Positions 32,114 through 61,817 of a stretch of 64,000 nucleotides of DNA are shown here, in pieces (the first letter of the stretch is position 1; each line of letters starts with the position of its first letter). A model generated the notes under the pieces. It saw nothing but the letters and a program-made list of their open reading frames with translations. It was not told where the DNA came from and did not search any database. Where the stretch lies: positions 17,734,001 through 17,798,000 of the forward strand of contig NC_087245.1 of assembly GCF_037042905.1 (NCBI RefSeq). Reading direction: 5' to 3'. This stretch comes from Lytechinus pictus. Lineage: Eukaryota. A program made the position numbers and the translations under genes.

Positions 32114-32119
32114 GAAACC

Positions 32120-32267: not shown

Positions 32268-32780
32268 GTACGTTCTGCCAGGTTCTCGGTGTGAAATTAA
32301 TCTATCCGATGTTTATGATTTATTAAGATGGTCAATATTTTTGCTTAATCGCATCTTTTTTTCCTTTTTCTTTTCTTTTCTTTTTTAAAAAGAACTTTCG
32401 CTCTATCCACCATTTCATTCTGGCCTCTTCATCATGTTAATATAGGCCAAATAAAACAGTAAATCTTTTCAAAATGAATGAATCTTTGTTCATTTTTCTT
32501 CAAATGTTCATCATATTCATTCCATAATATTTATTTCACATTTTTGCACTTAACAACCACGTGTATCACTTGTTCTCTCTTCTACACATTCTCTCCAATC
32601 ACTCTATTTAATGACTATTGGCAATTCAATGTATGTTTGCAAGTCTCTAACAATAAAAGAAACAAACGGGAACAGCATTTCAATTAATACAACCATTTAA
32701 TAGGAATAACAGATCAAATAAATATATCATACAAATCTATTACAATTATAAGGATTAGTTCATCCTGCTAATACTACAGT

Positions 32781-34950
32781 AGGATAAATTCATCTTAATT
32801 TCAAGGCTACATGAGGATAAATTTATCCTAATTTCAAGGCTACGCAAGGATAAATTTATCCTAATTTCAAGGCTGCACGAGGATAAATTTATCTTAATTT
32901 CAAGGATACACGAGGATAAATTTATCCTAATTTCAAAGCTACATGAGGATAAATTTATCTTCGTTTCAAAGCTACATGAGGATAAATTTATCTTAATTTC
33001 AAAGCTTCACGAGGATAAATTTATCCTAATTTCAAGGCTACGCGAGGATAAATTTATCTTAATTTCAAAGCTACACGAGGATAAATTTATCTTAATTTCA
33101 AGGCTACATGAGGATAAATTTATCTTAATTTCAAAGCTACATGAGGATAAATTTATCTTAATTTCAAAGCTTCACGAGGATAAATTTATCTTAATTTCAA
33201 GGCTACACGAGGATAAATTTATCTTTATTTCAAGGATACACGAGGATAAATTTATCTTAATTTCAAGGCTTCATGAGGATAAATTTATCCTAATTTCAAG
33301 AATACACGAGGATAAATTTATCCTTATTTCAAAGCTACATGAGGATAAATTTATCTTAGTTTAAAAGCTACATGAGGATAAATTTATCTTAACTTCAAGG
33401 CTACACGAGGATAAATTTATCCTAATTTCAAGGCTACACGAGGATAAATTTATCCTAATTTCAAGGCTACATGAGGATAAATTTATCCTAATTTCAAGGC
33501 TACGCGAGGATAAATTTATCTTAATTTCAAGGTTTCATGAGGGTAAATTCATCCTAATTTCAAGAATACACGAGGATAAATTTATCCTAATTTCAAAGCT
33601 ACATGAGGATAAATTTATCTTCGTTTCAAAGCTACATGAGGATAAATTTATCTTAACTTCAATGCTACATGAGGAGAAATTTATCCGAATTTCAAGGCTA
33701 CACGAGGATAAATTTATCCTAATTTCAAGGCTACACGAGGATAAATTTATCTTAATTTCAGTCTACATGAGGATAAATTTATCCTAACTTCAAGGCAACA
33801 TGAGGATAACTTTATCTTAATTTCAAGGCTACATGAGGATAAATTTATCTTAATTTGAAAGCTACATGAGGATAAATTTATCTTAATTTCAAAGCTACAC
33901 GAGGATAAATTTATCCTAATTTCAAGGCTACACGAGGATAAATTTATCCTAATTTCAAGGCTACATGAGGATAAATTTATCCTAATTTCAAGGCTACACG
34001 AGGATAAATTTATCTTAATTTCAAAGTTACACGAGGATAAATTTATCCTAATTTCATGGCTACACGAGGATAAATTAATCTTAATTCAAGGCTTCATGAG
34101 GATAAATTTATCCTAATTTCAAAGCTACACGAGGATAAATTTATCCTAATTTCAAGGCTACACGAGGATAAATTTATCCTAATTTCAAGGCTACATGAGG
34201 ATAAATTTATCCTAATTTCAAGGCTACACGAGGATAAATTTATCTTAATTTCAAAGTTACACGAGGATAAATTTATCCTAATTTCATGGCTACACGAGGA
34301 TAAATTAATCTTAATTCAAGGCTTCATGAGGATAAATTTATCCTAATTTCAAGGCTACACGAGGATAAATTTATCTTAATTTCAGTCTACATGAGGATAA
34401 ATTTATCCAAACTTCAAGGCAACATGAGGATAAATTTATCTTAATTTCAAGGCTACATGAGGATAAATTTATCTTAATTTGAAAGCTACATGAGGATAAA
34501 TTTATCTTAATTTCAAAGCTACACGAGGATAAATTTATCCTAATTTCAAGGCTACACGAGGAAAAATTTATCCTAATTTCAAGGCTACATGAGGATAAAT
34601 TTATCCTAATTTCAAGGCTACACGAGGATAAATTTATCTTAATTTCAAAGTTACACGAGGATAAATTTATCCTAATTTCATGGCTACACGAGGATAAATT
34701 AATCTTAATTCAAGGCTTCATGAGGATAAATTTATCCTAATTTCAAGGCTACACGAGGATAAATTTATCCTAATTTCAAGGCTACATGAGGATAAATTTA
34801 TCTTGATTTTAAAGCTACACGAGGATAAATTTATCTTAATTTCAAAGCTACATGAGGATAAATTTATCTTTATTTCAAGGCTACACAAGGATAAATTTAT
34901 CTTATTTCAAAGCTACATAAGGAAAAAAATTATCTTCATTTCAAAGCCAC
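32781..34950 (+). repeat. 33-bp tandem array (GAGGATAAATTTATCYTAATTTCAARGCTACAY)n, about 65 units
   Basis: Directly visible; each unit has the 16-bp palindrome AGGATAAATTTATCCT or a one-base variant. Unit count estimated from length. Confidence 0.97.
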
Positions 34951-35067
34951 AGCAATTACACAATTCACCTTAGAATAATTTAACACTTGGTTATTTCATT
35001 GGGTGGCAAATGACATTTATGATTAAATTTGCATTGGACTTGTAGACAAGAGTAAGTTTTTCATTAA

Positions 35068-35650
35068 AGGTCAAGTCCACCCCAGGAAAATGCTGACTTG
35101 AATCAATAGAGAAAAATCAAACTAGCATAGTGCTAAAAATTTCATCAAAATCAGATGTAAAATAAGAAAGCTATGACATTTAAAGTTTCGCTTATTTTTC
35201 ACAAAACAGTAATATGCACAACTAGGTGAGTCAGTCGATGATGTCCATCACTCACTATATCTTTTTTTTTTATTGTTTGAATTATACAATATTTCATTTT
35301 TTTATAGATTTGACAATAAGGACCAACTTGACTGAACCATGGAGTATTAAACAGTGCTAATTCCACATGTTCAGGGAGGAATTAATCGTTGTACCACTTG
35401 ACAATGAGAAGAAAATTATAATATTTCATATAATAAAATACAAAAGATATAGTGAGTGGATGACGTCATGGTCACCTCATTTGCATACCCGCCAGGATGT
35501 GCATATAACTATTTCGTGAAATTAAGCTAAACTTTAAAAAGTCATAACTTTTTTATTTTACATCCAATTTTGATGAAATTTTCAGTGTTATGCTTGTTGG
35601 ATTTTTCTTGTTTTATTCAAATCAACTTTTTGTAGGGATGAACTTGTCCT
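35068..35650. mobile_element. Kolobok-like MITE
   Basis: TTAA|AGGTCAAGTCCACCCC ... GGGATGAACTTGTCCT|TTAA: TTAA TSD with purine-purine start. Confidence 0.8.
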
Positions 35651-35757
35651 TTAACTTGTGGCCTGTGGTGCATGTTCAAAATTATGTAAACAACATGTAT
35701 GTAACTATGTACCCGGGTTAACAAATTTGTAAAATAATCTGTGACAGCTCTCCTGTC

Positions 35758-35926
35758 CTGGGCGTTGTGGCTTGCGCCTGTAATCCAAGCTGTGGGGAAG
35801 TTACAAATTGATGCAGAGGTTCGAGCCCTGGTCACGTCTTTCAGATTGTGATGTTAAAGGTCGGTCCCAGACGTATATAATCATATCTGATTGATACACG
35901 TCTGACAAAACTCGAATACACACACA
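35758..35926 (+). mobile_element. Putative 7SL (SRP RNA)-derived SINE
   Basis: Head CTGGGCGTTGTGGCTTGCGCCTGTAATCCAAGCT resembles the 7SL/Alu 5' domain; B-box-like GGTTCGAGCC; (CA)n tail; 9-bp TSD TCTCCTGTC at 35749-35757 and 35927-35935. Confidence 0.75.
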
Positions 35927-36319
35927 TCTCCTGTCTTCCAGAGACTTCTCACTGTCCTTCCCAATTCAGTTGTGGTACTTCTGAGTTCTGTAATGACATT
36001 TAAGGAGAAAAAAAATATTTCAACTCTATACAGCAATTAGTTTTTGTGTCAAATTTTGAAATGCAAAGGTTTTTCATATTGTAATATGAATGATTTGTAC
36101 TGATAGTAATCAATTTTATTTACATCACATTCACTGTTAACCTTAAGATGGGCTAGCTTTTGTGGCTACTCCACGGCCAGATGGTTGTATACACGTACCC
36201 AACCCTTGCCCCCCCCCAAAAAAAAAAAAAAAAAACCTGCAGCTGAACGAGCACATAATTTCAACAATGGTAATGTGAGATGTATTCTGCAAAGCGATTT
36301 TGCTTACTTTTCTAAACTA

Positions 36320-36577
36320 AGACAAGGCATAACATAAGCGATTTTGTGTCTCGCCCACTTATGAAAATAACCAGAAATATCATGATTTGCAAGGGCACGC
36401 AACATATATAATTATTATTATAATAATTATTTATAATCAATTTTAGTATTTGTTAAATAATAACAATAACAATTTTTATCTATAAATTGTTCTTCAAAAC
36501 GGCATTTTGTAACATCACTAATCGCAGGTACGTAATGAAGCGATTGATGGGCGAGACCTATTGTATTTGCTTTGTTG
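36320..36577. mobile_element. Small element with subterminal inverted repeats (Helentron/HINE-like)
   Basis: GTCTCGCCCA near the left end and TGGGCGAGAC near the right end; ACAAGGCA / TGCTTTGT termini. Confidence 0.45.
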
Positions 36578-36945
36578 ACAAACGGATGAGAGATCTACGA
36601 GAGATCGGTCTGGTAAGAAACCTTCCATTTTTCGCCTTTTCATTAACCAATTTTGGAAACTTTCATACCCATTAGGCGTATGAAGGTGTAAAAAAAAAAA
36701 ATCAAAATCATTTACGTGATTTTTATCTTAAAAGATGGATTTCCTAGGGAAATCCATCTTTGTTTACAAGTGTCTCTTTAAATGGCAGGCGGTTCAAGGC
36801 TCTATGATGAAGAAGTATGTCAAAATATTAAAAAATTATCATCATGGTCATGGAGTCCTCAAGACTATCGACTAGGACCTACATTAAAAGTCATTATCTC
36901 ACTCACTCAGGCACACATTATCATTGAAATTTACAATATCTCACC

Positions 36946-37208
36946 TCCATCATCTCTTTGTTTAGCCGGACGGAAACGACAGGCCTGTTGTACACTTCCC
37001 CAGTCCTCTTCCATTGAGCAAGTTGCCCGTTGACTTGAAGAAACAAAGTGTGGACTCCGAGTTCATGTCCCTTTACTCGTCGCTTTCGCTCGAACTGCTT
37101 GGCTGGCTCTGCTGGGACGGCCGCGCCCGGGAGCGAGTGACCACAGACAGTGAACGAATACGGCACGACCACTACCGGTACCAGCTGAAGAAGATGAACC
37201 TCTCGTAG
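36946..37208. other. GC-rich exon-like island of unknown identity inside the giant element
   Basis: Plus strand: TTTAG acceptor then an 80-codon open frame to TAG (36966-37208). Minus strand: 116-aa ORF containing a GAG|GTGAG donor near 36945. Strand unresolved. Confidence 0.35.
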
Positions 37209-37510
37209 TTTTAACTCGTAATTAAAAATGTCAATAATAACGCGTAAGAGAACTTCAGAAGATAGAAACACTTAAACAGTAAAACGTGATCCAAAACAAA
37301 AACAATGTCGAGAAGAGCTATATTTTGGCTTAATCAAGGACAAGGTTATCGAGAGCGGTTTGTAATCAACAGATGTCATGTTGTGAAAAAACAAGTATGC
37401 GTTCGAGGACGACCGGTCCGTGGCCGTGGCAGCGGTGCGCTGTATGCATGTGCAGCGATGTGCAGCATGCGTGACACATCCCCTATTGTTAGCGAGAGCA
37501 GGGCTATTAT

Positions 37511-38099
37511 ACAAATATACAATGACACCCGAGGATCTGGCTAAAACTATTCGCATCGAAGGAACATCACATAGTACTATTCTCCCGAGGGCCATCGGCC
37601 CGAGGGAGAATAGTACTATGTGATGTTCCTGAGTGCGAATAGTTTTAGCCTGTTCCGAGAATGGGTCATTGTATATTTGTTTTATATCCCTTCCACTCAT
37701 ACCATTTTACAGCGAAACGATTTTTAATAAGTCGATATAGAACAATCGTTGAGAAGTTGAGAAAATGATAGGTCTTGCCGTATGGATCGTCTGTTCAGCG
37801 AGCGCACCTCGCCCGGTACCTGGTTAGTGCAGCTCGCCGAAAGTTTCCCGTGGCATGCAGTGGAGAGTACCGTCTGGCTGAGCAGCGCTCTGCTCGCATC
37901 GCACCGCACAGCTCGCGAATCGCGAGGTAGGGGGGGTCAAAAAAACGTATAGTTCACTTTTTCCCTAGGGAAAAAACGGACTATGCGTGACGTCAGCAAG
38001 GAAAATGAACTATTTCATGGCAAACGTTTTTCGTAGTAAAACTATTCCTTTTCTCCTTGTGTACACTCTCAATACAACGATCTTAAGTAAGGGATATAA
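37511..38099. mobile_element. Hairpin-ended non-autonomous element (Crypton- or Helentron-like, uncertain)
   Basis: 170-bp imperfect palindrome 37511-37680 with 26-bp perfect inner arms; separate 11-bp inverted repeat TTATATCCCTT (37682-37692) / AAGGGATATAA (38089-38099). Confidence 0.55.
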
Positions 38100-41000
38100 T
38101 ATTCTATTGGTCTCGATAAACTTTAATCTCCATTCGATTCCCTGACTCTGCTTTTGTTTTGCAATTGCAACGCTACTAGCTAGGGTTACAGCTATTCTAC
38201 GAACCGAGACCCTAACATAATTATGTCAAATTATTTCTGATATCGCAAAAAATATATAGGCCTACGGCATATACATATATATCGATATTGCTTTGCTAAT
38301 AAGTATCCAATGAGCTAGTATATCAAACTAAATCATAATGTGAAAAATGAATTAATATAATATTAACTATATTATAGTCTACAAGTTTCTTTAAGAGGGG
38401 GTAACAGTTATAGGCTATCGGCCTGCTAGCATGGTGCGCTAGAAGAAATTAATATAAGAAATTTCCCTTTAGAAAATCATGATATACTCATCTAGTACAA
38501 TTAGACCTGCATGGCGTGTTCAACATTTTGGGGAAAATTTTGCTTTACCGTACGTTAGGCGCGATCGAGAACCTTTCTAGTTGTTGCATGTACGGTATAG
38601 CATCATAAAGATGATACGTACATCTATGATCTGTATACATTCTTTTTATTTGAATGTCCAGCTAACTGGTGGTCATTCTGCCTACTTTTCCCAGTAACAT
38701 TTTGTTCTACCTTAATACGTGCATGACGCATCTCATGTTTTGTGGATGATTTGGAATAATCGCTTGTGCTCGAGTATAAATGCGTCTGTGTATACAGACT
38801 ATCATACTATTGTCACTGTGCCCCGAATGTGTGCATGATAGATAGCATACATGACCATGAGCATGGAAGATGAAAAACTGGGCATTATTGACCGTCCTTT
38901 AAAAAAAATGGCCGTGGTAAAAAAAGGTTGGTTCAAAAGAGTAAATCCATGGTCTTGTGATGATTAAGGATGATATCTATTTCATCTGACATTAACGTTT
39001 TATCAATTTTGATTGTTATTAAAACAAACCTGTGCCACTATTACTTTAGTCATGCAAATTACATGACATTGTCTTCCATATTTTTCCTTTATTCCTTACA
39101 ATCGAATGGATAAAAACCAGGGAGTTGGGAGTGGATGAACTGCTATAAGCTAGCCTATACTTTAAAATTTAAATTGTTAACTTGTCCTTCTACATTCAGA
39201 TCTTTGCATGGGTGTCGATCCCGGGGGAGGGGGTATTATACCCCCCCCCCCCCCGGCCTTATTGTATATTAAAGCGTAGTACTTGTAGTCTTATAAGGAT
39301 TGCAACCTCTACTGGCGTGCGTGATGTTGGGCTATAGGGACCATGGAAGAAAAGGGGTGAATTTGATAAATATAGGCCCTATATTTGTTTATGTCAAAAC
39401 TTGTTACAAAATTAAATTCCGATTAAAAAGGTCAAAATGTTTGCTCGCTGGCTTCGCCTTCTCATTTTTTTCTAAAATAGATTTTGCCTATTATGTTATG
39501 TCTGGACCGCGCAAAATTTATGCATCCCCACCCCCCCCCCCATCAATCTTTAAAAAAAATCCCTCACAGAGAACAAAAGTTTGGTCTGTCATCCCATTGC
39601 CAGAAGCAGTGGGGGGGGGGGTTACTCCCTCCCTAAAAAAAAGGAATAGGCCGGGCCTACCGAAAATGTTTTACTTTGGAAATTGGAAATTGTAACAAAA
39701 TCAATCATAATAATTGTGCACAAAATCCTTCGATTTCATTTAGACAATGCCAGAGCGCCCCATGGCATGGACCTATCCACGGAGGACTCCCCAGCCTCCC
39801 CCCCCCCCCCCCCCCCCGCTTCCGCTAGTGGAGAAATTATATTGCTTGCAAAAAAACGCTCCTCACAGGTTATTTATCGGCCTAAATCATATTAGAGAAA
39901 ATTGAAAAAATATTAGCCATCGAAAAAATTGTGAAAGGCCTCAACTCTAATCACCAAAATACGGGAAGAGATATAGGCCTACCCTGTGTGGTAGGACACG
40001 AATATGTGACGATTCAAATTAACAGTTGCTATCAGCTAACATGTCATGTTCAGCATGTTCAGTCAAAATTAACGCCACACATAATTATGGGCTGAGTATT
40101 CTTATCGCCCCTTCGCAAAACATTTTTGTTCGTCCTTTCAGTTCCACAAACTTAACTGAGCGCACATCTTGTCATCAGACTGTCTTGACCTCAGAAATTA
40201 GTATTTCCCCCTAAATAAGGCATTCAATTTTGTGACGCCTGTTTTGGCACTTAAATCAGTTAATCATCTTTTGGTTGAAAATGCTATAGGCACGGATAGG
40301 CCTTGAGGAAGTTCCTTCAAAATGGCCGTGATATTATGAAGAACTAAAATCAGAGCAGAAAATATACATCAATACATTGGTTTAGGGGGCAAAAATTGTG
40401 TTTCTCGTGTAACGGGAGACCTCAAAATGCAAAATTTCCATTTGAGTACTCTAAAAACTAGCGCATGTTATTTTTATTGTTTATTTCAGAAAGAGTGGTC
40501 ATATTGCAAGTGAGTAATCCATTTAGCATATCAAATACTTTTTTGAGAACTTAATGCCGAAAAATACTTTTCAATGTTTCTGATGTAAAAAGTAAATAGT
40601 AAATATTTTCAAAGTGTACTTTGAAGTGGACACTTAATGTTTAAATAGAAACCACAAATAATACATAAATTAAGTAGAAATTTTAGCAATAACATAAAAT
40701 AAGATTTAATGAAAGCAATGCATGGTGTGTCACAACGTAATATTTGGGGGTCACCAAATTCATCTACAAAATACAATAATGGCCATACTTTTCATTATTT
40801 TTTATATTATTGCTAATCACTCTTTCTAAACATAAAACTATATGTAATGGCTACCAGAAAAAATCTTTAGAAAGGTAATATGCATTCTACACCCAAAAGT
40901 CGGTGTTTCCCATGTAAGCCATTTAGGGGACACCAAACCTTACATGGCATACAGTAACAATATCTTTTGATTGTCATTTTCTGTGAAAATTAATATGGGT

Positions 41001-41174
41001 TTTTCTGTACCTTTTTCGTATCAATAGACAAATCATTTTTTTAGATTGTTCTTTGGGCCTGATAGCGCCATCATAAAATGATGAAAAGTGTCCCTGACTG
41101 ACACATACACACCCGATCACGGAAAGAAAACAAAAATAAGTTAGAAATGAAAATGAAAGTCATGTATTTTATAT

Positions 41175-42495
41175 CAACTGCGTAGACAGGATTTAATTTT
41201 GGAGGGGTGGTTAGTGCACGCGAAGCGTGCCAATACTTACAGAGCGCGCGAAGCGCACTCTCGAAGGAAAGGGTGTAGGGAAGTTCTTGATATCTCATTA
41301 ATTTAATATGAAAAGAAGACATCTCTTGCATCTCTAGTATCCTTATCAACTCGCCCCCATTTGCTGTGATTAAAACAAATGTATTTGAAAGAAATTACGA
41401 GCGTCCCCAAAATGGGAAAAGATCATTTAAAACCGTTGAATGATATAATACCGCACGAAGCGCGGAAGCTAAAACGTTTTATAAAATTGAGAACAGAAGT
41501 GGCATAAAATGCCTACCTTGGTCGCATCATATTTGATGATAAAAACTTTAGCCACAGTAGATGTCTTTAGATCACAAAACATAGTAGAAGACGGGTATGC
41601 AAGGAGGAAATATTCCTTTCCGCGAATGGTTTTGAAGCTCTGAATTGAAACTTTAACCTGCTCTAATTTTGATATTTCTTAGATTATAAATGGATAACGA
41701 TGAAAAAGGAAGCTCAAAATGTGAAAGGGCCCAGTGATGCAAGCCAGACTATGAGAGGGACTTTTCATTTCCCTTCCACGTGAAATACGGTAACATCTGT
41801 GATTTATTTCGGGAGAAAAAAGTGTAATTTCGCTCATTCTTATTAAGCGCTTTATTAATTATGATTCAGAAAGTTCAGTGATATTCAAAATTTCAAATCA
41901 ATCGTACAAAACAAGACAGGAGATGGGTGTAACAGCGATATAGAATAAAGTTTCATCATACATATAGCACGGCACGAATTTATAATGCCTCGAGCCCCTT
42001 TTGAGCAGATACTTTGCCACAAATTACTCACTGAAAAGTGGGAAGATATCATAATAATTATGGGAACTCTGGGAGTGGCGGGAGTGTTGACCCGCTCCGA
42101 ACAGAAGAGCCGAAATTTTGTGTCAATGCAATTTAAAAAAGAATCATCATATTTTTTCTTAAATTTATGTATACTCTATAATTTATGGCAAGAAAATACA
42201 ATTCCCATAGATGGGAAGGGGAAAAACCGTATCATATAGTTTGGATAGAGCTCGAAAGCAATTTTTTTAATGAATTATAAGACAGAAAACTAAACGTCTC
42301 ATTTAGGTTTTTATTCTTTTGACCAAAAAAAAACCAAAAGAGAAAACATTATATTTAGGACTATACCCATCTTCCCTCTCTTCGCTTTCCCTTTTCCTTT
42401 CTTCTTCCCTTTTCCTCTCTTATTCTTTTTAGAGCGTTTTTTTTGTTGGGGGGGGGGGCGACCACCCCCATCGCTTCCCCCTGGCTACGCGCCTG
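41175..42495 (+). mobile_element. hAT-like non-autonomous element
   Basis: CAACTGCGTAGACAGG / CCTGGCTACGCGCCTG degenerate TIRs; flanks TTTTATAT / TTTTATTA; truncated homologue at 59327-59925. Confidence 0.7.
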
Positions 42496-43662: not shown

Positions 43663-44083
43663 ATGTACGGAACCGTACATCATGTATATAGGTCCATGAT
43701 CATACCATGGAGGTAGACCAGTAACATACAAAGAAAAAAATACGAGACACAATATACAAACGCACCCTCACACACACCATGGACCTATATGTTCAGCACA
43801 CACACACACACTGGACGACGGCGCCCCTGTCCACCCTATAGATACCCTATGCCCACGGCCACACGATAGTACGTGTGCAAGAAGCTTGATTTCGTAATCA
43901 ATCGCACGTGTGTTTTGTTTGTACACAAAGCTGACGCTGGGCACGTGTGTAATTGTATCACACTGCACTACTTAATAATTGCATCTCGAAATCTAAACTG
44001 TTCACTCGTAAATCTAAGTACGGTACTTTTCATTCAGCACACATTTGCAATGTGGACTAAATTTAAACGAAGAAGAATATACG

Positions 44084-46773
44084 ATGGCGACGAAGCGCGA
44101 CATCTTTTCGAAGCTCTCTATTTTACAGAAGAGGAAAATGCTGCAACAAGTGAAGAGGCCACCAGTTTACGGGCCGGAGTACGGCTTAGCCTTAGGCGGG
44201 GACGACTCCCAGGCCATGCCAGGCCCAGTCTGATTATTGAGTCGAGTTTTGGCGATTTGACATCAGCTACGCCTACGGGTTTGAATATTGCAACAAGCAA
44301 CGACGTTGTTCGAGCAGATCCCGTTGGCGAAGAGAGAGGTAAGGCGCGCATATTAAAGGCTAAGCCTACTTAAGTTACTTAACCTAGCCTAAGCCTAATA
44401 TTAGATTAACCTTTGATTGAATATAGGCTTTATTTTTAGTTTATTTAGTACTACTTTACTGGGGATATACTAGACTAAAGTCTAGACTAGACCTTCTTTA
44501 GGCTATCCTCGAGTCTGTCTAGTCTAGGCTACATGCATCATTGTACATGTATGAATTGTAGCATAGAGCAATTGCTTTGGTCTCTGTTAAATTGGTTGTT
44601 CCGCCACCAAAGACTGTTTAGTGTTGGCTCGATCCACCTACCAATTACAGAGAAATTAAAAAAAATATTTAGTAACTCCTTGAGAAAGACGGCACCCAGC
44701 TGTCTAGATCTACAATGTAGATGTAGCATGACTAGACCAAAAGATTTCGGTCTCTGTTATGTTGGTTGTTCCGCTGAACTCCGTTGGCTCCACTCACCAA
44801 ATACAGAGACCGAAGTTGTAGCTCGATCTGTACAGGGACTCAATGGCCATATGTTTATGTATTAAGTTCAGATCAACTTGGGAAGTGGGAGTTGCGCGAC
44901 AGCCGAAGTAAGTCACTGTTTTCCCCCCTTTTAAGTTTCTTTTTTCCCGTTTTGGTGCATTTCAGACCAAAACGGAATAATGATCTTTAAAAAAATAAGA
45001 CTTTATTTTGGTACAGTTCATTTTATATATTTTTATGAAATAAAGACAAAAATCAATGAGCCCCATCGGGGGAATTTTGCATTGTTAACCCCCTAATGGT
45101 GGCTGCACGATAGCGAGCCGTCTGTGTACGAGGAGAAATAAGATGAAAATAAAATTGTTAAAAAACTCCTCGAAACAGACGGCTGCCAGCTGTCTATAGC
45201 ATGACTAGCTTATTTTCTCTCGTTCTTAGAAACAAATGCTTGATAATAACACTAAAAAATTGATAGATAAATCTGAAGTGAACGAACGAGAAGTCTAAAT
45301 ACTTGTTATTTTTGGTGTAGGGTGCATAGGGAACTCTTTCAATTTTTTATTTCAAAAGTGATATTTTAAAGAATGAAAAAAATTGTCATGCAATTGATCT
45401 ACATAGGATTTGAACAGAGAGAGGGCTAAAAATTTCATCAAGGTTGGACAAGGAATAACAAAATTGTGATATAATATTATCAAGCTTCTCAGTATATTTT
45501 CATTTTTTATAAACTGGGAGTTTTATACCGGTGAAACAGTTTTAGGCCTAGAGGGATCTATTCTCTACTCTATGTTTTAATTCTATGACTATGTGTGTTG
45601 TAATGAATAAAATAGATTTGTGCAATGGAAAAGTCAAGCAATCAATGTAAAATTAGCAAATTTATCAAATAACATTCAAACAATTTTTTTAGATTATATC
45701 CGACCTTTACACCACAACCATTTTTGGGGCATGTAATCTATTAATGATATGAAATGGGGTCTAGAGACATTCCCCTTTGGGGAGATAAACCAAGCTGAAG
45801 ATAAGCTTTACATGCTTTTCCTTTGTTTATCATATTTAAAAATTTACACATTACACATACAGGTTTTAATTACCTACCACATGCATGCAAAAGTGACTAC
45901 ATGGTTAGAATTACATTTACTACATCCCAGGTAAATGAGGTCATTATCGCCCTATATTAACTGGAATGAACCTATAGCCTGAATATTTGCATACTTTTAT
46001 AAAATATACAGGTAAGCATAGTATTAAAAGAAAGAAGGTTAGCCTAGGTCCTACCTACCTTGTATGATGTAATTATCATTCTAATTTTCCTTTCTTAAGT
46101 CTGGATTTTTTAAATCTTTTGCCAGGTGGAACTTGAAGTGTTCAGTGAAAGCAGTGTTGTTCAAAGAGAGAAGGTACATTCATGTACACTACGAGATGAA
46201 CTCCCAAGCAAGTGAAGTTGAGCTTCAAGCAGGTATATTGAATATGTTTTGAGTAATGTTTACAAATTCATATTCATATAAGATTGCCTCATGAAATGTG
46301 GCATCAAGGGCAAGCAAACTCAAACAAAAATTGATTTTAAAAAGACGGTGGGAGGGGGGGTGATATTAGGTAGGCCTAATGTTAACATTTTGGAGATATT
46401 ATTGTTTTTATGGAAGCAATTTAATTGTTTTTATAAGGACTTAAGTGAAGTTGAAGGATTTAGATGATTTCTTTTCTCCTTTAAGCTTTTATTAAACAAG
46501 AGGTGCTGATGCAATTATTTGCATATTCTAGAGCCCTCTCTGATTTATTTTCTTTATGATGTTCCACCTCTTTAAAATTCTGCTAACATTTATTGTTGGA
46601 CTTATCTCTAAATGAATGATGGGTGAAAGGTTTGATCTAAAATGATTGAATTTGTTGTTTTATTTTTTGTTCTTTAAACATGCCTACAGGTGGCTACTCC
46701 ACAGAAGTAGATTTCCCTTTCAGAATGTCAGATTGTTAGATTTCTGAAGTCGATATAAACTTTAATTCACCAG
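44084..46773 (+). pseudogene. Candidate 5' exons of the giant element's gene (44084-44338, 46126-46232, 46690-46773)
   Basis: GC-rich ATG exon MATKRDIFSKLSILQKRKMLQQVKRP.. ending at G|GTAAG; two AG..GT-bounded segments downstream; frames disrupted. Link to the transposase is inferred from position and strand only. Confidence 0.3.
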
Positions 46774-46970
46774 GTGAGTCTTTAAAAAATTTGTCTTGAA
46801 GATCGATACAAAGTACATTTGCGTATACATGCAGTCTATAGCTTACATAATATATGTGTATGAATTGGTATCTCATTTTGGGAGCCTGCCAATTTCCTGA
46901 AGACTCTTGTAAACATGAGTTTCTTCCATTGGTACCCACCACTAGCTTCAGGGAAAAGCAGGGAAAAAAT

Positions 46971-51086: not shown

Positions 51087-52633
51087 CAGTGGCGTAGCTA
51101 GGATTTTTTCCTGGGGGGCACTGGGGGGTCCTTGCTTTTTCGGGGGGGGGGGGGGACATTTTTTTCTGTGTGTGTATATACTATGTCACAAGGGCAGATC
51201 CGACTGGGGGTGGAGCCCGAAATTATCTTCACCTATATTACCCCCGATCAGTCACTTCTATAAAACAACCTAAATATGAAATAATCTCATAAGCTCTATA
51301 TAAAAAAGTGCGAGCGCGAAGCGCGAGCGTTTTTTTTTATCTTTCATTTATTTTGTCCTGAAAATTGAACATTCTGGGCACAGTTTAATCCTGAACAAGA
51401 TGTGTATGTAACTAGATAATTACTGCAAATGCAAAGCACGAGCAGAAAATTTTAATAAATGTTCTAGCATGATCGGAAACAGACCTGTTAAGGACTGTTT
51501 ACAGCTACCCACGAATACGGTACATATATCAATAATGGGAGCGTGAAGCGGGAGCTAAAACTTCATTTCGACCTAAATAATTGACATTCTAAGCACTTTT
51601 TGTAATCATAAATGGGATAGGTACATGTATGTAACTAAACAATTTGGAAGAAAATTAAGATTTTAGACCTAAAAGCGGGACACTCTATTCATATTTTGCA
51701 AATTATGAATAGGATATGGTTAATTGGGTATCATTGATAATTATTGATATTCTGATCTGAAACTGGATAAGCATATTTTAAATAAAGAACATGCAGGCTA
51801 TCTCAATAAATATGCGTGCGCATATTTTAGATTTAGACCTAGAATCTTGGCATTCTGAATACATTTTTATAATCATGAAGATCAATAATGCAAGCGCGAG
51901 CTGAAAACATTTGATATTACGATCTGAAGAGGGTCAATTAAAAAAACTATTTCAAGTACTGTGTAGGAAAATTGTGAAGTGGATGTGGATCACACTTTAT
52001 AATGAAAGATTTGTTTATCTAACATGCGTAATGACAACGTGGAAGTTTTTGTTTTTAAGGCTTGACAACTAGAAATAAAAAAATAGGCCTACGTTTTGAC
52101 AGTCACATCTGAAAATTGATATTTTGAGAACTTTATGGAATACACGAAGACAAGGAAATTGGCAATCAAATAATGACCATGCAGCGTGAGCTTAAAATGT
52201 TGATAATTATGTAGACCATATTAACGGACATTTTACAGAGTGCATTAAATTTGTAAATGAAAAATAAATAATGAAAGCTCGATGTCCGAGATGAAATATG
52301 TTTTGTATATTAACTTCAAAACTTGACATTTTAAGCTCCATATCAGCCTATTGAGCAAGATATGAATCTCATCGAACAGGAAATTTGAGCGTGAAGCGCG
52401 AGCGAAATTTTTATTTAGTATCATGAAAGATTTTTTGTTTTGCAAGTCTCACTCGTCTTCCTCCTCTTATTTTCCTCTTCTTTTTTCCTTCTGTCTTTCA
52501 CCTTCTCTTTTTTTTTTTTTTTTTTTTGCTCCGCCAATTTTTTCAGGGGGGGGCAGCCGGGGGGGGGGGGGGGGGGGGGGGGCACGTGCCCCTCCTGCCC
52601 CCCCCCCCCCCCCCCCCCGGCTGCCCCCCCCTG
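51087..52633 (+). mobile_element. hAT-like MITE(s) related to the 2684 family
   Basis: CAGTGGCGTAGCTAGG start, GCGCGAAGCGCGAGC subrepeats, segment similar to 4200-4500, G/C-tract end ..CCCCTG. Confidence 0.6.
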
Positions 52634-54674
52634 AATTTTTTTTTTTTATTTGTGGCTAATTTATTTTTAATCAAAATTGAAAGATTTTATCAACTTTATA
52701 TCATCAAAACATGAATAAATACTTCATATCTACTCTCCAAACAATTGAAATCATGTCATTAAAAATCAGGATAATATTGCATTATAGCCTATAAAGTGGT
52801 GAACACTCGCCCCCTACTCCACTTGCACTATGATTTTTAAAAATCATTGATTTGAAATAACTTACATTGAAACATGTACAAATAATTGACATGTGGCAGT
52901 AATATTTTTTTTTTACTCAAAACAGAAAGATTTTATCAACGTTATATCATCGAAACAAAATCCTTCATATCTACTCAAAACAATTGGAAATCATATGTTT
53001 AAGACAGGTTGATCTTGCAATGTAGCCTATATCGGTTAACACTTTATACGCAGCTGTACACCCACAGCAATAATGGTACTCCAGAACAAAAAAAAATATG
53101 TTTAAAAAAAGGAATTCAAAGAGTAAAAACTGAATTTATACTATCATAGGCCTGAATTTAGCCAAGGCCTGTTCATACTTTCTGTACAATTGTGCTCATT
53201 CAGCAGGTACACTGAGAAAGGTTCAATAATGCACAGAAAATTGAGTGCAATAATACACAAAATCTGCATTGTCCCTGGTTTTATCCCATTAGTATAACAT
53301 TTTATTACATGTATTTAAAGCTGTAGAACCAGGTGTTCTTATTCCTAGCAAAACTGCTAAGAACTGCCAAATTAATATTTCAGGTTTATTGTACTAGAAA
53401 CCTCCCACTTCCCCGATTGTACGAAAAGAAATAATTAAAATAAACTTGCCACTTTTTCCCAGTAAGACACAGCTTTGCAAACAATGCTTTGAACAGTAAA
53501 AAAGTTCCAATTCTGGCTCAAATAACAAAGGATGTTTAACAAATAATAAAAAATTGTAGTTTTCTTTAACACATTATTTTCTGTTCTTTGCATGAAAATC
53601 GAGAATGTTTCTCTTTGGAGAATGTGAGTTTCTGAGTCATGGAATTCTTCCAAAGAAACTGATCCTCGTTTCATGTTTGAATAGGAATACGGTACTAACT
53701 TTGCTGTACCAAGACCCAAACCATTCAGTAGGAGCTAAATACCTTATACGAGAGGATGCAGAAAACAGCCTCGTCATCATGACTTTCAATACGGTACTCA
53801 ATATAAATTCTATTTTGACTGGAGTTTATTATCATGAAATAGAATAGAACTTAATAATAATTTTAGTTTCAAAATGTATGATTTTGATTATGACTTCAGT
53901 GTAAGGGTTATATTTTTGGTGTTTCCACTCTGTTTGAGAAATCTTTGTAAAAAAAATAAAATAAATAAATCTTAAAAAATCGCCAACCCTGGAAACAAAT
54001 TCCAACAAATTTCATGTAAAATAATAATGATGATTTGAATAAAACAAAGACATACATGCACTATATAAAAAATAAAAGGCATACAAATTAATTATGTTAT
54101 GGCATTTTTTTTTTTTTTTGGGGGGGGGATATTTGTTAGAAATGAAGAATTTGATATTTTCACCAAAAATTAATATTCCACTATTTACATGTACATTAAG
54201 TGAGAGTTAACTAAAAGGCAAAAACCTTAAAGATTTACGGAAAATTTCATACTTGTTTGCACAATTAATTACTAGTAGGCCTAATTAAAAAAAAAAAAAT
54301 CAAAATTTAAAAAAAGCTTAACTATACAACTGTCTTGTGGTTTACATATGGCTCGAGGTGTATGCAAATTTCTGTGGTGATTTTGCAATCAGTGGCCAAG
54401 ATCTGAAGGGGGGGGGGTCATTCGACCCCCCAGTAATTCATGGTCTGAAATAACCTAGTTAAATTAGGGTAGCAGAGTGAGACTATAGGTGCCGCTTTTT
54501 CCGACGGCGGCGTCAACACCAAATCTTAACCAAAGGTTAAGTTTTTGAAATGACAGCATAACTTAAAAAGTATATGGACCTAGTTCATGAAACTTGGCCA
54601 AAAGGTGAATCAAGTATTACTGAACATCCTGGTACATTCATGCCCTGATGTTTTTGTTTTTGATGACTTTACAG

Positions 54675-57318
54675 AGCGAAATGCAGCCTGTCTGGAATTA
54701 GCGGCAATACTGAGGATGAAATGCTGCAGAAGTTATTGTCTTCATAAGATATCAAGAATAGATGCAAGCAAGGCCCGCAGAAGATTTCAGAACAATACTC
54801 TAGCAGATCAGAGGCTATGGATTTTGCAGTACCTTATTGAACATCACAACTTTGTAAACATGGATGGAGACTCATCCTTGGGATTACTAGGACCCGCTTA
54901 TGGAAGATGGAGTCAGGATTAGCAGGTAAATGGTTCAAGAGGTATCCTTTAACATGACTAGTACCATTCTTGTAAAATTAAATCATGATACGTACTTTAA
55001 ACTTTCTTTTTTTTCACTTAATTTATTTATAAGGGATTATAGTTTTACATACATGTTGTCTCTTAGGATCTGGTTCTGCTATAATCATTGGTGCAGGAGC
55101 TAAACCCAGCAAGCTTATAAAGGACAATTCTTTGGTTCACTTGGTAGTCACAGATGTCTTTTCCCAAACATTACAATTATTCAAGCACAAATTCCATGTG
55201 AAAATGGGTCTCTATGCTTATTTAGGAGATGGGGAAGGGGAGTCTGCTTGTTTTAATCTCAAACAAGTCTTTAACATATTGTTATATGTGCATGCTGGAG
55301 AGAAAGATACATGTAATGAAGAGGAGTGCTGATATGATAAGACAACTGCAGGAGGCTTGATTGTAGGGATAGAGTAAAGAAAGTCAAAATCCTCCTTACA
55401 ATGAAAGGTGCGTTAGTATCAATTTTTTTCGACGAAAACTGGTCTAAAAAATGGACTTAAAAGCATTAGAATTGGACATATATAATACCTTGGATATCAA
55501 AATTTAGTACACCCAAAATTTCACCAGCAGAAATGTGGTTGTCACCTATCTCTTTACTCAGTCTTTCCATTGCTTGGCTTGGAATTTAGAACGTAGATAA
55601 TTCATCCAAATAGAATTTCAAAGGGTAAAAAATTACCAAGTACATGTACAAGGGTTACCAAGTTCAAATATTTGGAGGCAGGATATGATTTAAGGATCAA
55701 AGGTAAACTGAATTAATTGATAACATTTTAAAGTGATCACAATTTTAAAGCGATAGCAATTGTTGTACATGTGACCTGTGTAAATTAAGCTCAGGGAATA
55801 ATATGAAAATTTTCTATTGATAATAATATTGTAGAAGATACATGTTTATAGTTTCTTTTGCTTTAAATGTACCACTTCTGTATTCATTTAACCTCCAGAA
55901 GGATTGGTGACATCTCGTCCATCAAATCACCATCATAAAGGACTTTTTTGTCTGTGATGACGTCAATGGTGTGGCTTAGTGAATTTGTCGATAAGTTTGG
56001 AGAGAAACTGCCAACCAACAACAAAATCCATCTTCCATCATGCCTTACACGTGGAAATGTGTATTGGATTATGAAGGAGGAAGTAGAAGAGCAAGGAGGT
56101 TCTGTTTGTAGTCAGCAATACTTCTTCCGCAAATGAAGACAGGAAATGTCTCATGTTACCATTCCAAAGGTAGGTGATTCTCATGAGTATTTGCACTGTA
56201 TATTTACAAAACTATTATACCTTTAACCATAAAAAAACTGGGCTATTTTGATACCTTAGAAGACTGGGGCGGGGCTGATTCAGCCCCTCCCCCCATATGA
56301 TCTTGGCCATTGATCGCGATGAAAATCTGCACTCGCATTACACATGGCATAATCTACAAAATGGTAAAATCAATTTTCAAAAATATTACATTGCTAATTA
56401 ATTATGCCAATGTATTATGTTAATTTATGCATTAAAAAAAACCTTTCCTCTATCTAAATAAGGCCCTTTTGCTAAAAATAATTCAATATCGCAATTATTA
56501 TTTTTATACATATCATTATTTCTAGAATTCTGATTGATTTCTTTGTTTTTTATAGATTTTTTTGATGGAAATCATTGTTACTCTGACCATAGACAACATG
56601 ATATTTATTATGTTTAATCAGTGAAAGGAGAAAAGGTAATACATTTATGAACTTGAGCTAAAAACACTATTTGCATCGGATTTGAACAAAAATTCATGTT
56701 TTGGGGCAATTTGGGGTCTGTATGCACTAACAAAATATTGGGTAATTTTGGAACCATGTATTCAGGGGTCGCAAGTTTATTCTCATAAGTTGTGTGAGAC
56801 TTTAAAATGAAAATTTAGTCAAAGGCGCAGTCAGACAATTTCGCACAGCAGATATATCACAAAAAATGTTGAGGGGAAATCTGAATCATAGGGTTAATTA
56901 TAAAACCAGAGATTTTGCATTTTATTGAAAAATTTGAAATAACTTCCTATTTCTATCACATTTCATGAAGCTGTTTTGAGACCAAGTAGATTTGATATAC
57001 TTGACTATGTATTCCCCAACATAAACACAGGTCTTTAGGTGATCTACAACAATATAGCATACATGTACTTTGCTGGCTTTAGCAGTGCAGCTGCTACAAT
57101 GGTATAGCACCCAACTATGATGATGTTAACTACTATTCCTTGAAAAATTTAGAAAATATACATTGTGTAATTCTCTCTTTATTTGTTCATTCCAGGTGAA
57201 CCTTTTTTACGAAATGCGACATATGCACCAAACTGAAATCTTGCCTAGAGAAGACAACTGGCAGAGAAGAGAGACAAACTTTACTGCAAGAAAGAGAGTC
57301 ACACCTTTTCCAGCAAAA
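54675..57318 (+). pseudogene. Intron-containing DNA transposase pseudogene, N-terminal half (Sola-like); exons 54675-54925, 55899-56169, 57196-57318
   Basis: Phase-compatible GT-AG exons reading CCRSYCLHKIS..ARRRF..QRLWILQYL / LCKHGWRLILGITRTR | WLSEFVDKFGEKLPTNNKIHLPSCLTRGNVY..SQQYFFRK*RQEMSHVTIPK | VNLFTKCDICTKLK..H. Three frameshifts and one TGA; catalytic region absent. Family assigned from recalled motif similarity. Confidence 0.65.
56227..56893. mobile_element. piggyBac-like MITE in a transposase intron
   Basis: TTAA|CCAT.. and ..TAGGG|TTAA; related right-end fragments near 49560-50104 and 54130-54470. Confidence 0.55.
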
Positions 57319-57539
57319 GTAAGTTTCAATGAAATATTTGATTGTGTATATGTACATGTATTTTAATAGATTTGATTATCACAGTCTTCCAGGATAAGTA
57401 TCATTTATATGTCATGGATGTCAGCCCGGAAGACTAGCCTCCACAATTATCAATCTTTATTCACTTGCCATCTTTCTTCCCTCTTCTTTTGTGTAAATGT
57501 GGTATTTTCAAAGTATATGCAGAGATACAATGTTGAGGC

Positions 57540-59153
57540 CACTGGCGTAAATCCCGGGGGGATGGGGGGGATATATCCCCCCACTTTTTACGAAAGAAAT
57601 AAGAAAAAAATCACAAGAGATAATTGTTTTATTGGTGAAAATTCTTCCTAAAATACCGCTTAACAAATAAAACAATATTATTGAATCATAAAATGCAAAT
57701 AAAGAGCCAGTTCACCATTTCCAAACGAAATACTTATGTCCTTATTATAACATTGAAGAGAAACCCCCGTTTCTTCCAATTCATCAATGTTGGGGTCTTT
57801 GGGAAGGGATTAAGATGGAATGTCAAAAATTTTTGAATGTAATCTCTAATAAAACAATTAAACCATCATGGGGTAAAAAGATAATAATATTGGAGGGGTA
57901 TTTGCCATATGGACATACAGTGGCGTAACTACGGGGGGGGGGAGAGGGGGGGCATGGGGGGCACATGCTCCCCCCATCGGCTGACCAAAACAAAAACGGG
58001 GAAATGGGGAAAAATAGAAAAGAGGGAGAAAGGAAGAGAAACGTAGTGGGAAGGAAGAAAATATTATTCATTATAATGTTATATTATAATTATGTTATGT
58101 TACATTACATAAGAAACATTTTTATCATAACTTCATGAAACATAATTTACCCAGGGCCTACGTCTTCATAGTTCCTGGTGCTCGCATTGTCTGTTCAAAG
58201 AGATATATAATCCTGTTGTACTAAAACATCCCGTTTTCAAGTCAATATAAACTAAATATATTTCCTAGCACTTGAGTTATCATTATTTTATGTAGTGACA
58301 TGAGCTTCTTTTACATGATTAAAAAGGTGATTGGCCCATGTTTAGGTCTTCGTATATATAAAAACATTTCCTTCCGTGATTACGTTCGCATTAGTGGATT
58401 GGTGAGATATGTCTGCTCTTCATGAATTCCTAAAATCAGTCCTTGAAATGTCCTTTCTTCTGATCTGAATATCAAAAATTTTCAGCTCGCGCTTCGCGCT
58501 CGCATCATTTGGTTAATAAAATATGTATGGTCCTAGTTAATTCCTACAAAGAAACCTTAGAATGCCCCACTTCAGGTCTGAATTATCTAAATTATCTAAA
58601 TTTTCAGCTCGCGCTTCACGCTCGCAATATTTGATTAGTGAGATGCGTATAAAAATCATGATTGCAATGAGTACAAAAAGTGTTTCATGTGTTCAGATGT
58701 AATTCTAATAAAATCAGCAAGCGCTTGGCACTTGCATTAGATGACTATGGTGAAATATGCATACTCTTAATGGATTCCTAAAATATATTCCTTAAAATCT
58801 TGCTGTTTGGGGTCAAAATATACGAAAATTTCAGCTCGCACTTTGCGCTCGCATTGTTTAGCGAGACAGGTACCTATCATGATTACACAAATTTGATTAT
58901 AATGTCGCTTTTTAGGTGTGAATATAAAAAATTCAGCTCGCGCTTCGCTTGCATTATTTGATCAGTGAGATACATATCCGTTCAATGACATTGTCCTTAA
59001 AATGTCTCTATTAGGTCAGAATAACTAGCAACCAAGCGCGCTTCGCGCGCTCACTCAGTGATTTGAAAATTTTGCTGGTGCCCCCACAATGCCGTGACCC
59101 ACGGTACGCCACTGTGGACATATCAATTACAATTCCTTGCATATCTAAAAACA
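57540..59153 (+). mobile_element. Second copy of the composite MITE (nested element 57918-59114), right end truncated
   Basis: Colinear with 24991-26340, same nested insertion point and TGGACATA TSD. Confidence 0.9.
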
Positions 59154-59326
59154 ATTTAAATTCACATTTCAGTGGTACGCGAGAGTTGCAGGGATAAGAA
59201 CACTCAACACCACATGTAATCCTGGATGTCCATCATGTAATCTAACAGAATGTATTTTAGAATTTGCAATTACTTCCTATTTCTATCAGAAATTTCATGA
59301 AGCTTTTTTATTTTACTAAGTAGAGA

Positions 59327-59925
59327 CAACCGCGTAGCCAGGATTTCATTTTGGAGGGGGCGGTAAATGCACGCAAAGCGTGCCAACACTTACAAAGCGC
59401 GAAGCGCGCTCCCTAGGGGGTGGGTGCAGGGAGAGGGAGTTTCCCCCTTCCGTGCGAAGCTTTCGGTGTTTCTTAAATTAAAATGAAAAGGAGCCGTCTC
59501 TCTTGTCTCTAGTACCTATATCAGCTCCAATTAAGTTGACTATATTTTGATTTTGAACCTTGTTTTTAAAAGTGATTGTGAACGCACAAAAAGGGATAAA
59601 ATGGAGGAAATTGCAATAATATTTACCCAGCGCGAAGCGCGAAAGCTAAAGCGTTTTATCAAGTTTTTTCTAAAGAAAAGGGTCCCGAGATAAGGGTATT
59701 CCCTAAGTTATACTGAATGCTTCCCTTGGAAAGATCAGATATGATTACAAACAATTTAGCGGCAGTGCATATCTTTAACTCGCAAAACAAGAAGGGTATA
59801 TGCCGGGAGGAAGATATTTCTCCCCGTGCAGAGCAATAAAACTCTGAAATTTCAAAGGGCGGACGTTTCATCAAATGCAGATATCTCTACCCCATCGGCT
59901 CTAATTCAATCGATTTTCTAAAATT
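59327..59925 (+). mobile_element. Truncated homologue of the 41175 element abutting the right 33-bp array
   Basis: CAACCGCGTAGCCAGGATTT start; similarity ends where the array begins. Confidence 0.7.
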
Positions 59926-59934
59926 ATTGAACTT

Positions 59935-61340
59935 GAAGTTAGGATAAATTTATCCTCATGTAGACTGAAATTAAGATAAATTTATCCTCGTGGAGCCTTG
60001 AAATTAGGATGAATTTATCCTCGTGTAGCCTTGAAATTAAGATAAATTTATCCTCGTGTAGCTTTGAAGTTAGGATAAATTTATCCTCATGTAGACTGAA
60101 ATTAAGATAAATTTATCCTCGTGTAGCCTTGAAATTAGGATAAATTTATCCTCGTGTAGCTTTGAAACGAAGATAAATTTATCCTCATGTAGCTTTGAAA
60201 TTAGGATAAATTTATCCTCGTGTATTCTTGAAATTAGGATGAATTTATCCTCATGAAGCCTTGAAATTAAGATAAATTTATCCTCGTGTAGCCTTGAAAT
60301 TAGGATAAATTTATCCTCGTGTAGCCTTGAAATTAAGATAAATTTATCCTCATGTAGCTTTGAAATTAAGATGAATTTATCCTCGCGTAGCCTTGAAATT
60401 AGGATAAATTTATCCTCGTGTAGCCTTGAAATTAGGATAAATTTATCCTCATGTAGCTTTGAAATTAAGATAAATTTATCCTTGCGTAGCCTTGAAATTA
60501 GGATAAATTTATCCTCATGTAGCCTTGAAATTAGGATAAATTTATCCTCGTGTAGCCTTGAAATTAGGATAAATTTATCCTCATGAAGCCTTGAAATTAA
60601 GATAAATTTATCCTCGTGTAGCCATGAAATTAAGATAAATTTATCCTCGTGTAGCTTTGAAATTAAGATAAATTTATCCTCATGAAGCCTTGAAATTAAG
60701 ATAAATTTATCCTCGTGTAGCCATGAAATTAAGATAAATTTATCCTCGTGTAGCCATGAAATTAAGATAAATTTATCCTCGTGTAGCTTTGAAATTAAGA
60801 TAAATTTATCCTCATGTAGCCTTGAAATTAAGATAAATTTATCCTCGTGTAGCTTTGAAATTAAGATAAATTTATTCTCATGTAGCTTTCAAATTAAGAT
60901 AAATTTATCCTCATGTAGCTTTGAAATTAAGATGAATTTATCCTCGCGTAGCCTTGAAATTAGGATAAATTTATCCTCGTGAAGCTTTGAAATTAAGATA
61001 AATTTATCCTCATGTAGCTTTGAAACGAAGATAAATTTATCCTCATGTAGCTTTGAAATTAGGATAAATTTATCCTCGTGTATTCTTGAAATTAGGATAA
61101 ATTTATCCTCGCGTAGCCTTGAAATTAGGATAAATTTATCCTCATGAAGCTTTGAAATTAAGATAAATTTATCCTCATGTAGCTTTGAAACGAAGATAAA
61201 TTTATCCTCATGTAGCTTTGAAATTAGGATAAATTTATCCTCATGAAGCCTTGAAATTAAGATAAATTTATCCTCGTGTATCCTTGAAATTAGGATAAAT
61301 TTATCCTCATGTAGCTTTGAAATTAAGATAAATTTATCCT
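59935..61340 (-). repeat. Inverted 33-bp array, about 42 units
   Basis: Reverse complement of the left array unit; gives the 11-aa periodic spurious ORF at 60371. Confidence 0.97.
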
Positions 61341-61817
61341 CCTGTAGTATTAGCAGGATGAACTAATCCTTATAATTGTAATAGATTTGTATGATATATT
61401 TATTTGATCTGTTATTCCTATTAAATGGTTGTATTAATTGAAATGCTGTTCCCGTTTGTTTCTTTTATTGTTAGAGACTTGCAAACATACATTGAATTGC
61501 CAATAGTCATTAAATAGAGTGATTGGAGAGAATGTGTAGAAGAGAGAACAAGTGATACAAGTGGTTGTTAAGTGCAAAAATGTGAAATAAATATTATGGA
61601 ATGAATATGATGAACATTTGAAGAAAAATGAACAAAGATTCATTCATTTTGAAAAGATTTACTGTTATAAGTAGAATATTGTAGACTTGCTCGCTTCGCC
61701 CGCTCACAATTTTTCTGAAATATTCCAACGTATCTAAACTCAACATTCTCTTGCACGTTCACTATTCGATAATTTTTTTCACATATCACATCCTTCACAA
61801 TAATAATATGCATACAG

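Follow-up and report, generated by a model that had tools for sequence, protein, structure and literature searches.

We analyzed a stretch of 64,000 nucleotides from the genome of the sea urchin Lytechinus pictus (assembly GCF_037042905.1, contig NC_087245.1, positions 17,734,001 to 17,798,000), hereafter the window, following up a first-pass annotation made from the letters alone. At 32455-61666, numbered from its first letter, the window holds a transposon of 29,212 bp with satellite-built terminal inverted repeats (TIRs). It is one copy, shortened by a 3' deletion, of a family of giant non-autonomous transposons that is real, has spread recently, and consists mostly of elements 38-43 kb long. 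Our reading, to which we assign a probability of roughly 0.8, is that the internally deleted copy belongs to a giant satellite-armed family, likely of the type of the brown-alga element Sola1-1_Ec32 and likely moved whole, in trans, by a transposase with the domain DUF7869. The novelty lies in the animal host, in sizes of up to 58-66 kb, in satellite arms that share one palindrome across three families, and in the link between DUF7869 and transposon ends.

The element and its empty site

The element starts with AACAG, ends with CTGTT, and is abutted on both sides by the target-site duplication ATAA (32451-32454 and 61667-61670). Its outer TIRs span 325 bp each, on the left at 32455-32779 (forward strand, starting AACAGTAAATCTTTTCAAAATG) and on the right at 61342-61666 (reverse strand). 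In an ungapped comparison of the arms, the sole mismatch across these 325 bp is at 32561/61560, and the next one is at 32780. Inward of the outer TIRs come arrays of a 33-bp unit, 66.2 units on the left (32774-34951, forward strand) and 43.0 units, inverted, on the right (59932-61347, reverse strand). The most frequent cores of the unit are GAGGATAAATTTATCC/T, and they hold the palindrome GGATAA-AT-TTATCC, a predicted transposase site. Long modular TIRs with tandem subrepeats thus flank a variable middle, which is the structure of a foldback element.

Removal of the element together with one ATAA leaves an intron of 334 nt (32268-61817) in a gene with a fibrinogen C-domain (PF00147, E 1.6e-16). 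The 3' part of its upstream exon lies at 32115-32267 and the downstream fibrinogen C-domain exon at 61818-62030, both on the forward strand. This gene stands at one end of a tandem array with 13 or more mucin-like/fibrinogen-domain paralogues (G000:C1:17.50-17.80 Mb), mostly 97-99% alike. Besides the window, 12 such loci were found and 11 read; all 11 lack the element, carry a single ATAA, and have introns of 329-337 nt. One contig of run X7 bridges the upstream and downstream exons, and contigs of three public runs again show the TIR boundary at 32455. The first-pass annotation had described near-identical outer TIRs of 325 bp with one mismatch, inverted arrays of 1.4-2.2 kb built on a 33-bp palindromic unit, an ATAA duplication of 4 bp, and a 334-bp host intron restored on removal. 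Each of these held, and the empty sites in the paralogues agree with them.

A family with a decayed transposase

A search of the 812-Mb genome with the outer TIR gave 43 matches (40 of 50 candidates scored), and the 22-mer terminus has 32 exact occurrences, against 0 for the reversed control. The matches include ten inverted pairs enclosing 23,972-57,783 bp: 29.2 kb in the window, then 38.8, 39.2, 39.4, 38.0, 40.2, 43.3, 42.1, 57.8, and 24.0 kb. Eight pairs have perfect 4-bp duplications, with seven different sequences (ATAA, TCAA, ATTA, TTGT, ATTA again, TATA, CGTG, and AATA), a result with a chance probability of about 3e-17 (binomial). The flanks of the copies are unrelated and stop exactly at the TIR, each with its own 4-bp duplication. 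Paired inverted copies, which the first-pass annotation expected from a genome search with the TIR, are therefore present. Nine copies have collinear interiors, in both orientations, with 0.46-3.08% divergence over 5,743 columns. Within a copy, the two arms differ at 0-6 of about 314 bases, and in one subclade the same TIR variant is found at both ends of all three members. The window copy has a frameshift and a 1.5-kb block in common with two copies and a 4-kb block in common with four others, a mosaic sharing that points to recombination between copies.

Both arms carry arrays in all ten paired copies, and array length varies from about 10 to 372 units across the family. The remaining ends are unpaired or truncated, and some of their arrays reach 278-372 units and up to 12 kb (14 stretches examined). 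Arms expanded to this extent (9-12 kb) occur at G000:C3:577522-675329, at C13:45051-100782, and at about 5.31 Mb of C2; the expanded ends of C3 and C13 have an identical flank and lie near contig starts.

The middle domain of the window copy (34952-59931) consists of a dead transposase gene and nested dispersed repeats. Most of its blocks are also found in eight other copies, and at least 34% of it matches other DNA in a 382-kb sample. A tblastx comparison with sister elements revealed no captured host gene, only transposase exons and dispersed repeats. The transposase exons lie on the forward strand. The first coding exon (44050-44340, RRIYDGDEARHLFEALYF) was matched by tblastn with the proteins P0004 and P0006 and is also present in a 66-kb relative described below. 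It is followed by a likely degraded exon for an acidic N-terminal region (46127-46233), whose translation resembles P0004 by eye without a tblastn match, and by a degraded exon with an in-frame stop (46690-46778; tblastn 46701-46778, E 0.006). This stop recurs in five of nine copies, the block being missing from the other four. Further on are the Cys-rich exon (CCxxxC, 54675-54925), with an internal deletion and a frameshift, the HLPSC exon (55899-56169), which encodes a predicted winged-helix region and has a stop specific to the window copy at 56134-56136, and the KCDxC exon (57196-57318), whose frameshift is also found in two other copies. The latter is the last transposase exon remaining. 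A deletion junction at 59914-59934, unique to the window copy where the middle meets the right array near 59,930, marks the loss of about 6-7 kb, including three 3' exons with the third catalytic residue and the C-terminal barrel. A short exon-like piece of no known family (36972-37073, reverse strand) has 11 matches, 10 of which are in or beside mapped copies of the element and one elsewhere.

From the first to the last, the exons of the family find their match in sea-urchin DUF7869 proteins, in support of the transposase-like peptide that the first-pass annotation had proposed. The transposase-like exons it had seen are present; they are broken, and the catalytic part is missing from the window copy. 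What remains there are non-catalytic exons, 53-62% identical to relatives, and a Pfam scan of four of these exon pieces alone found nothing. Two of the three conserved aspartates are encoded by the exon with the motifs DGMDQ/QMDNC. With the relative's exon as query, nothing in the ten elements matches at E<=1; the eight matches in the genome are all outside them. Since this exon is missing from all ten paired copies, the whole family is non-autonomous. The deletion and frameshift of the Cys-rich exon are found in all nine transposase-bearing copies, a frameshift of the GHAHE exon in all seven that retain this exon, and a stop in the last exon in seven of nine. Being shared, these lesions predate the spread of the family, from which we infer that it moved in trans. 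We found no autonomous copy of the same family by tblastn of the ten elements, by genome searches, or by a protein database search, the latter being weak for long proteins. The nearest database protein to the family's GHAHE exon is no closer than 68% (4 hits among 13 candidates). In a tree of 17 rows (16 of 50 hits plus the family), the dead transposase is placed beside P0004, a protein named from S. purpuratus, with 90/92 support and a long branch, a placement on which we do not rely. P0004 is 88% identical to P0002, the transposase of the 66-kb relative, in the catalytic exon, and in its last exons it is 70% identical to the window family, against 41% for P0002. This mixed pattern suggests an exchange between lineages.

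Candidate helpers and the proposed role of the arrays

An intact catalytic region, which the first-pass annotation considered worth looking for in other copies, is missing from every family copy found. The relative at G000:C2:9149517-9215464 (65,948 bp) does have an open transposase gene. This element has a TATT duplication, inverted arrays of a 32-bp unit, and a transposase gene, P0002, with nine modelled exons that are all open and a further 5' exon like the first one of the window copy. The relative also has an exact database match, named from Lytechinus pictus. Across 34 homologues, there is no variation at D311 and D390 and almost none at D430/D432. An AlphaFold2 model of P0002 has a mean predicted local distance difference test (pLDDT) score of 80.6 and an RNase-H topology, and these residues map to beta1, beta4, and the last helix of the predicted core. 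Structural alignment of residues ~250-466 with VIA-align gave the catalytic domain of Mos1 as best match (Z 8.5, root-mean-square deviation 3.4, 161 residues), followed by Metnase and retroviral integrases; it also gave winged-helix domains on residues 169-245 and chromo/PWWP/BAH-like barrels on 636-740. In the model, P0002 thus appears to have the RNase-H core of a DDE/DDD transposase. A phmmer search of P0002 against PDB returned nothing, and no paper in the literature searched names DUF7869, an orphan Pfam domain that is here tied to real transposon ends.

The C-terminal barrel (residues 610-705 of the alignment profile, ~636-740 of P0002) has a match to the C-terminal end of human NIPBL, seen with two PDB chains (E 2e-10), whereas P0002 alone gives no such match. 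NIPBL is the human cohesin loader, and its C-terminal tail is unexplained. The barrel, deleted from the window copy, may be a domain that is shared or that was captured; a literature search found no link between NIPBL and transposases.

The relative also carries a second gene, with ten exons on the strand opposite to the transposase, whose product is close to a protein named from L. variegatus. Exons homologous to it (31-53%), without the transposase, occur in the 24-kb copy with the window TIR; the nine other copies, window included, have no match. No Pfam domain was detected in the protein, and among its 133 relatives, of which 17 were scanned, one has an N6_N4_Mtase domain. Its N-terminal part matches sulfiredoxin, which we take to be of the ParB/Srx fold, with an E of only about 1. 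As judged from sequence, the second gene would fit a decayed accessory gene of the ParB-methyltransferase kind. The ancestor may be pictured as a two-gene element, with a spliced transposase and a divergent accessory gene, that would have given rise to two kinds of non-autonomous derivatives, one keeping the broken transposase and the other the accessory gene.

Our search also identified a third family, with copies of 30.4, 30.4, and 36.0 kb, 4-bp duplications in three out of three, AACA ends, and arrays of 57-bp units with GATAA-GC-TTAT. Its loci are G000:C7:20437022-20467464, C19:8721594-8751994, C5:49467984-49504021, and C16 at ~19.96-19.98 Mb, with arrays of about 5 kb. Its copies have 3' exons only, having lost the catalytic exon independently, while the C16 copy has all exons and a single stop, in the last one. 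Both sister families, that of the relative and this one, have AACAA termini. All three families start with AACA and have units built on GATAA-NN-TTAT, with unit lengths of 32, 33, and 57 bp and differences in the other bases. There are also sibling families with an identical 22-bp terminus and different but related units of 31 and 33 bp (G000:C6:8750479, C9:5187074, and C8:22256503); the one on C9 holds remnants of the second gene.

The helper that moved the window family was, somewhat probably, a copy of the same family that is missing from the assembly or now lost. Cross-mobilisation between families by the 66-kb relative is the less likely possibility. The relative has the sole fully open transposase of the clade found in the assembly, the C16 gene having its last-exon stop; it agrees with the family at 19 of 22 terminal bases, its unit core is GGATAA-TA-TTATCC versus GGATAA-AT-TTATCC in the family, and the database holds nothing above the 68% mentioned for the GHAHE exon. 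Its exons, however, share only 53-67% identity with those of the family over the core, a figure that drops to 41% for the last exon, and the outer TIRs give no useful alignment beyond the first 22 bases. Its own family is old, with ends that are 89-93% alike and mostly unpaired, so the relative has not been self-amplifying. Expression of the relative was not seen either: in four RNA runs, reads fell on intronic repeats only, except for one contig of 260 bases over an exon edge, which is weak evidence. For the window junction, the record lists no RNA run. Finally, a rare autonomous copy can escape one haploid assembly.

Under mobilisation in trans, one copy would have shed the exon that encodes two catalytic aspartates and acquired frameshifts, and its descendants would still have moved, nested repeats included. 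A related DUF7869 transposase may bind as a dimer to the GATAA-NN-TTAT palindrome of each unit, with the Cys-rich and winged-helix region as the probable point of contact. Given tens of sites, each arm could gather enzyme close to the ends and so make up for the burden of a 30-60-kb cargo. The two ends would then be paired, cut at AACAG/CTGTT, and inserted by way of a 4-nt stagger into targets of loosely AT-rich sequence, and copies would later swap blocks by recombination. Such a compensation for size is modelled on the one proposed for Galileo and Tetris, and the repeats of Galileo hold extra transposase sites (PMC4079207). Reviews hold that DDE transposition loses efficiency once the cargo exceeds a few kb and that ectopic recombination restricts giant elements, with haploid-dominant algae and fungi suggested as exceptions (PMC6431247, PMC12477816). 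In the diploid animal studied here, the spread of 30-60-kb units is recent and came after the death of their own enzyme.

The arrays might instead be neutral satellites produced by slippage or unequal exchange, with only the outer few dozen bases of importance for transposition. The range of about 10 to 372 units and the many unpaired ends would fit this view, which we find rather unlikely given that the palindromic core is kept across units of 32, 33, and 57 bp whose other bases differ, that sibling families have related cores, and that both arms of all ten paired copies have arrays. We therefore favor GATAA-NN-TTAT as the likely transposase site. The family would extend the foldback architecture to the Sola group, and it shows a way in which transposon arms turn into satellite DNA.

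Relation to Sola1 and to other giant or foldback elements

The group is Sola1-like, and it is neither Sola2 nor of the insect kind that targets AWWT; we write "Sola1-like" because no named Sola1 protein could be aligned. The 4-bp duplication typical of Sola1 is present in eight of ten pairs of the family and in 1/1 and 3/3 in the two sister families. A profile of the transposase aligns at 94% probability to an open reading frame of the L. pictus genome with DLQ, SDGCGGQN, and GHT motifs, a set that we presume to be typical of Sola1. Sola3 targets TTAA, a sequence found in none of the eight duplications. For Sola2, a comparison by eye with a published alignment opposes the motifs DF(S/A)ENY, SDG, and HGK to DGMDQ, QxDNCxRENKN, and GHTHEDIDQ here (PMC3627910).

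The best match among published elements is Sola1-1_Ec32 of Ectocarpus. It is 21,549 bp long, with AACCG-CGGTT ends, a 4-bp duplication, an imperfect TIR of 282 bp, and Sola1-1_PPa as best hit; its gene on the opposite strand has ParB-like and N4/N6 methyltransferase domains, and the portion of the description used here does not mention arrays (PMC12477816). That element and the group found here are alike in being giant DDE elements with a 4-bp duplication, the 66-kb relative also has an opposite-strand second gene, and the ends are similar (AACCG-CGGTT versus AACAG-CTGTT, with four of five bases of AACAG in agreement). In contrast to the 21.5-kb element of a brown alga, those found here are of 24-66 kb, live in an animal, and have satellite-unit arms of 1.7-4.4 kb or more; the second gene is gone from the window family, and in that of the 66-kb relative the S-adenosylmethionine-binding motif seems to be missing. 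The same study describes giant families with fixed nested insertions and pseudogenised transposases that are mobilised in trans (PMC12477816). The Sola-related AACAG foldback family that the first-pass annotation deemed possibly undescribed is thus a real family of a kind already published for a brown alga, which limits the surprise and leaves as "undescribed" only an animal as host, the greater length, and arms made of satellite units. Our literature search found no foldback Sola and no giant Sola of animals or sea urchins, although Repbase and Dfam may hold such entries.

Other known systems resemble the family in part. The insect Sola1 elements and their miniature inverted-repeat derivatives (PMC3845634) and the bivalve Sola1 (PMC10294476) share the 4-bp duplication, and in insects the word TTTT(G/C)AAA(G/A)TG near the end of the TIR resembles, by eye, a word found here. 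They differ in their AWWT/AWDT targets, GGACC ends, short TIRs, and sizes of about 2.8 kb (insects) or 5.4 kb on average (bivalves). The foldbacks Tetris and Galileo have similarly modular long TIRs, in which a unique outer part is followed by tandem subrepeats, with a variable middle in between, and they share non-autonomy and the seeding of satellites; yet foldbacks of known affiliation belong mostly to the Mutator or P superfamilies, and the TIRs of Tetris reach up to 1.7 kb (PMC4079207). The giant algal KDZ and EnSpm elements are likewise non-viral cut-and-paste elements above 20 kb, of other superfamilies and of up to 30-32 kb, about half of the 58-66 kb found here (PMC12477816, PMC6431247).

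Several observations weigh against our reading. Membership in Sola1 is indirect, the comparison with Sola1-1_Ec32 being made by ends, duplication, and layout rather than by protein alignment, and the AWWT target, a stated hallmark of Sola1 (PMC3845634), is found in none of the eight duplications. Transposition and DNA binding are deduced from sequence, and the role of the arrays from motif conservation in three families and the analogy with Galileo. For P0002, the Z of 8.5 is close to the level that unrelated models attain, Foldseek gave no match at E<=0.001, its top rows being nonetheless transposases, and in about 6% of two RNA runs hardly any raw read falls on the exons. The left and right arms of the relative agree at only 93%, so its last move was not recent, and two of the ten pairs (C1:24.15 Mb and C11) lack a clean duplication.

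Some of these points would suit a DDE transposon of a separate lineage neighbouring Sola1, for which the Sola label would be wrong. The absence of AWWT, the DGMDQ and GHTHEDIDQ motifs that are not tied to a named Sola1 protein, and an Atlas cluster where 95% of the members have DUF7869 and 11% the ISAz013 domain go in this direction. We judge such a lineage improbable, since an element filed under Sola-1 agrees in its ends, duplication length, and size and in its layout of two genes, the DUF7869 clusters take in oomycetes and streptophytes, and the profile matches the reading frame with the Sola1-like motif set. An origin of the copies by segmental duplication, by the joining of two independent TIR repeats, or through errors of assembly is largely refuted and very improbable in spite of the two pairs without clean duplications and the mosaic blocks, as unrelated flanks end at the TIR with a duplication proper to each copy, interiors are collinear, paralogues are empty, and the boundary at 32455 recurs in three public runs.

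The Sola1-like giant family moved in trans also allows a bolder picture, which we advance tentatively and hold to be on the doubtful side: a clade of 30-66 kb would rank among the largest natural non-viral cut-and-paste transposons of animals, with palindrome-lattice arms that beat the size penalty and seed satellites above 10 kb, and with a barrel homologous to the NIPBL tail. The intact 66-kb relative makes a transposase, its ends, and a presumed binding site accessible to tests, and may be a lead to an enzyme for the delivery of large cargo.

The host paralogue of the window is itself dead, with an 8-nt exon deletion causing a frameshift (~32173) and a second foldback in its exon. The latter (28290-32114, 3,825 bp) has an AAAC duplication, arms of 1,540 nt reported as 100% complementary, and 31-bp palindromic units, and its site is empty in 11 of the 11 paralogues. 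Elsewhere in the window, an element at 1168-5166 has inverted arrays of a 15-bp unit and presumably recalls the TU elements of sea urchins, which are foldbacks of the same modular type.

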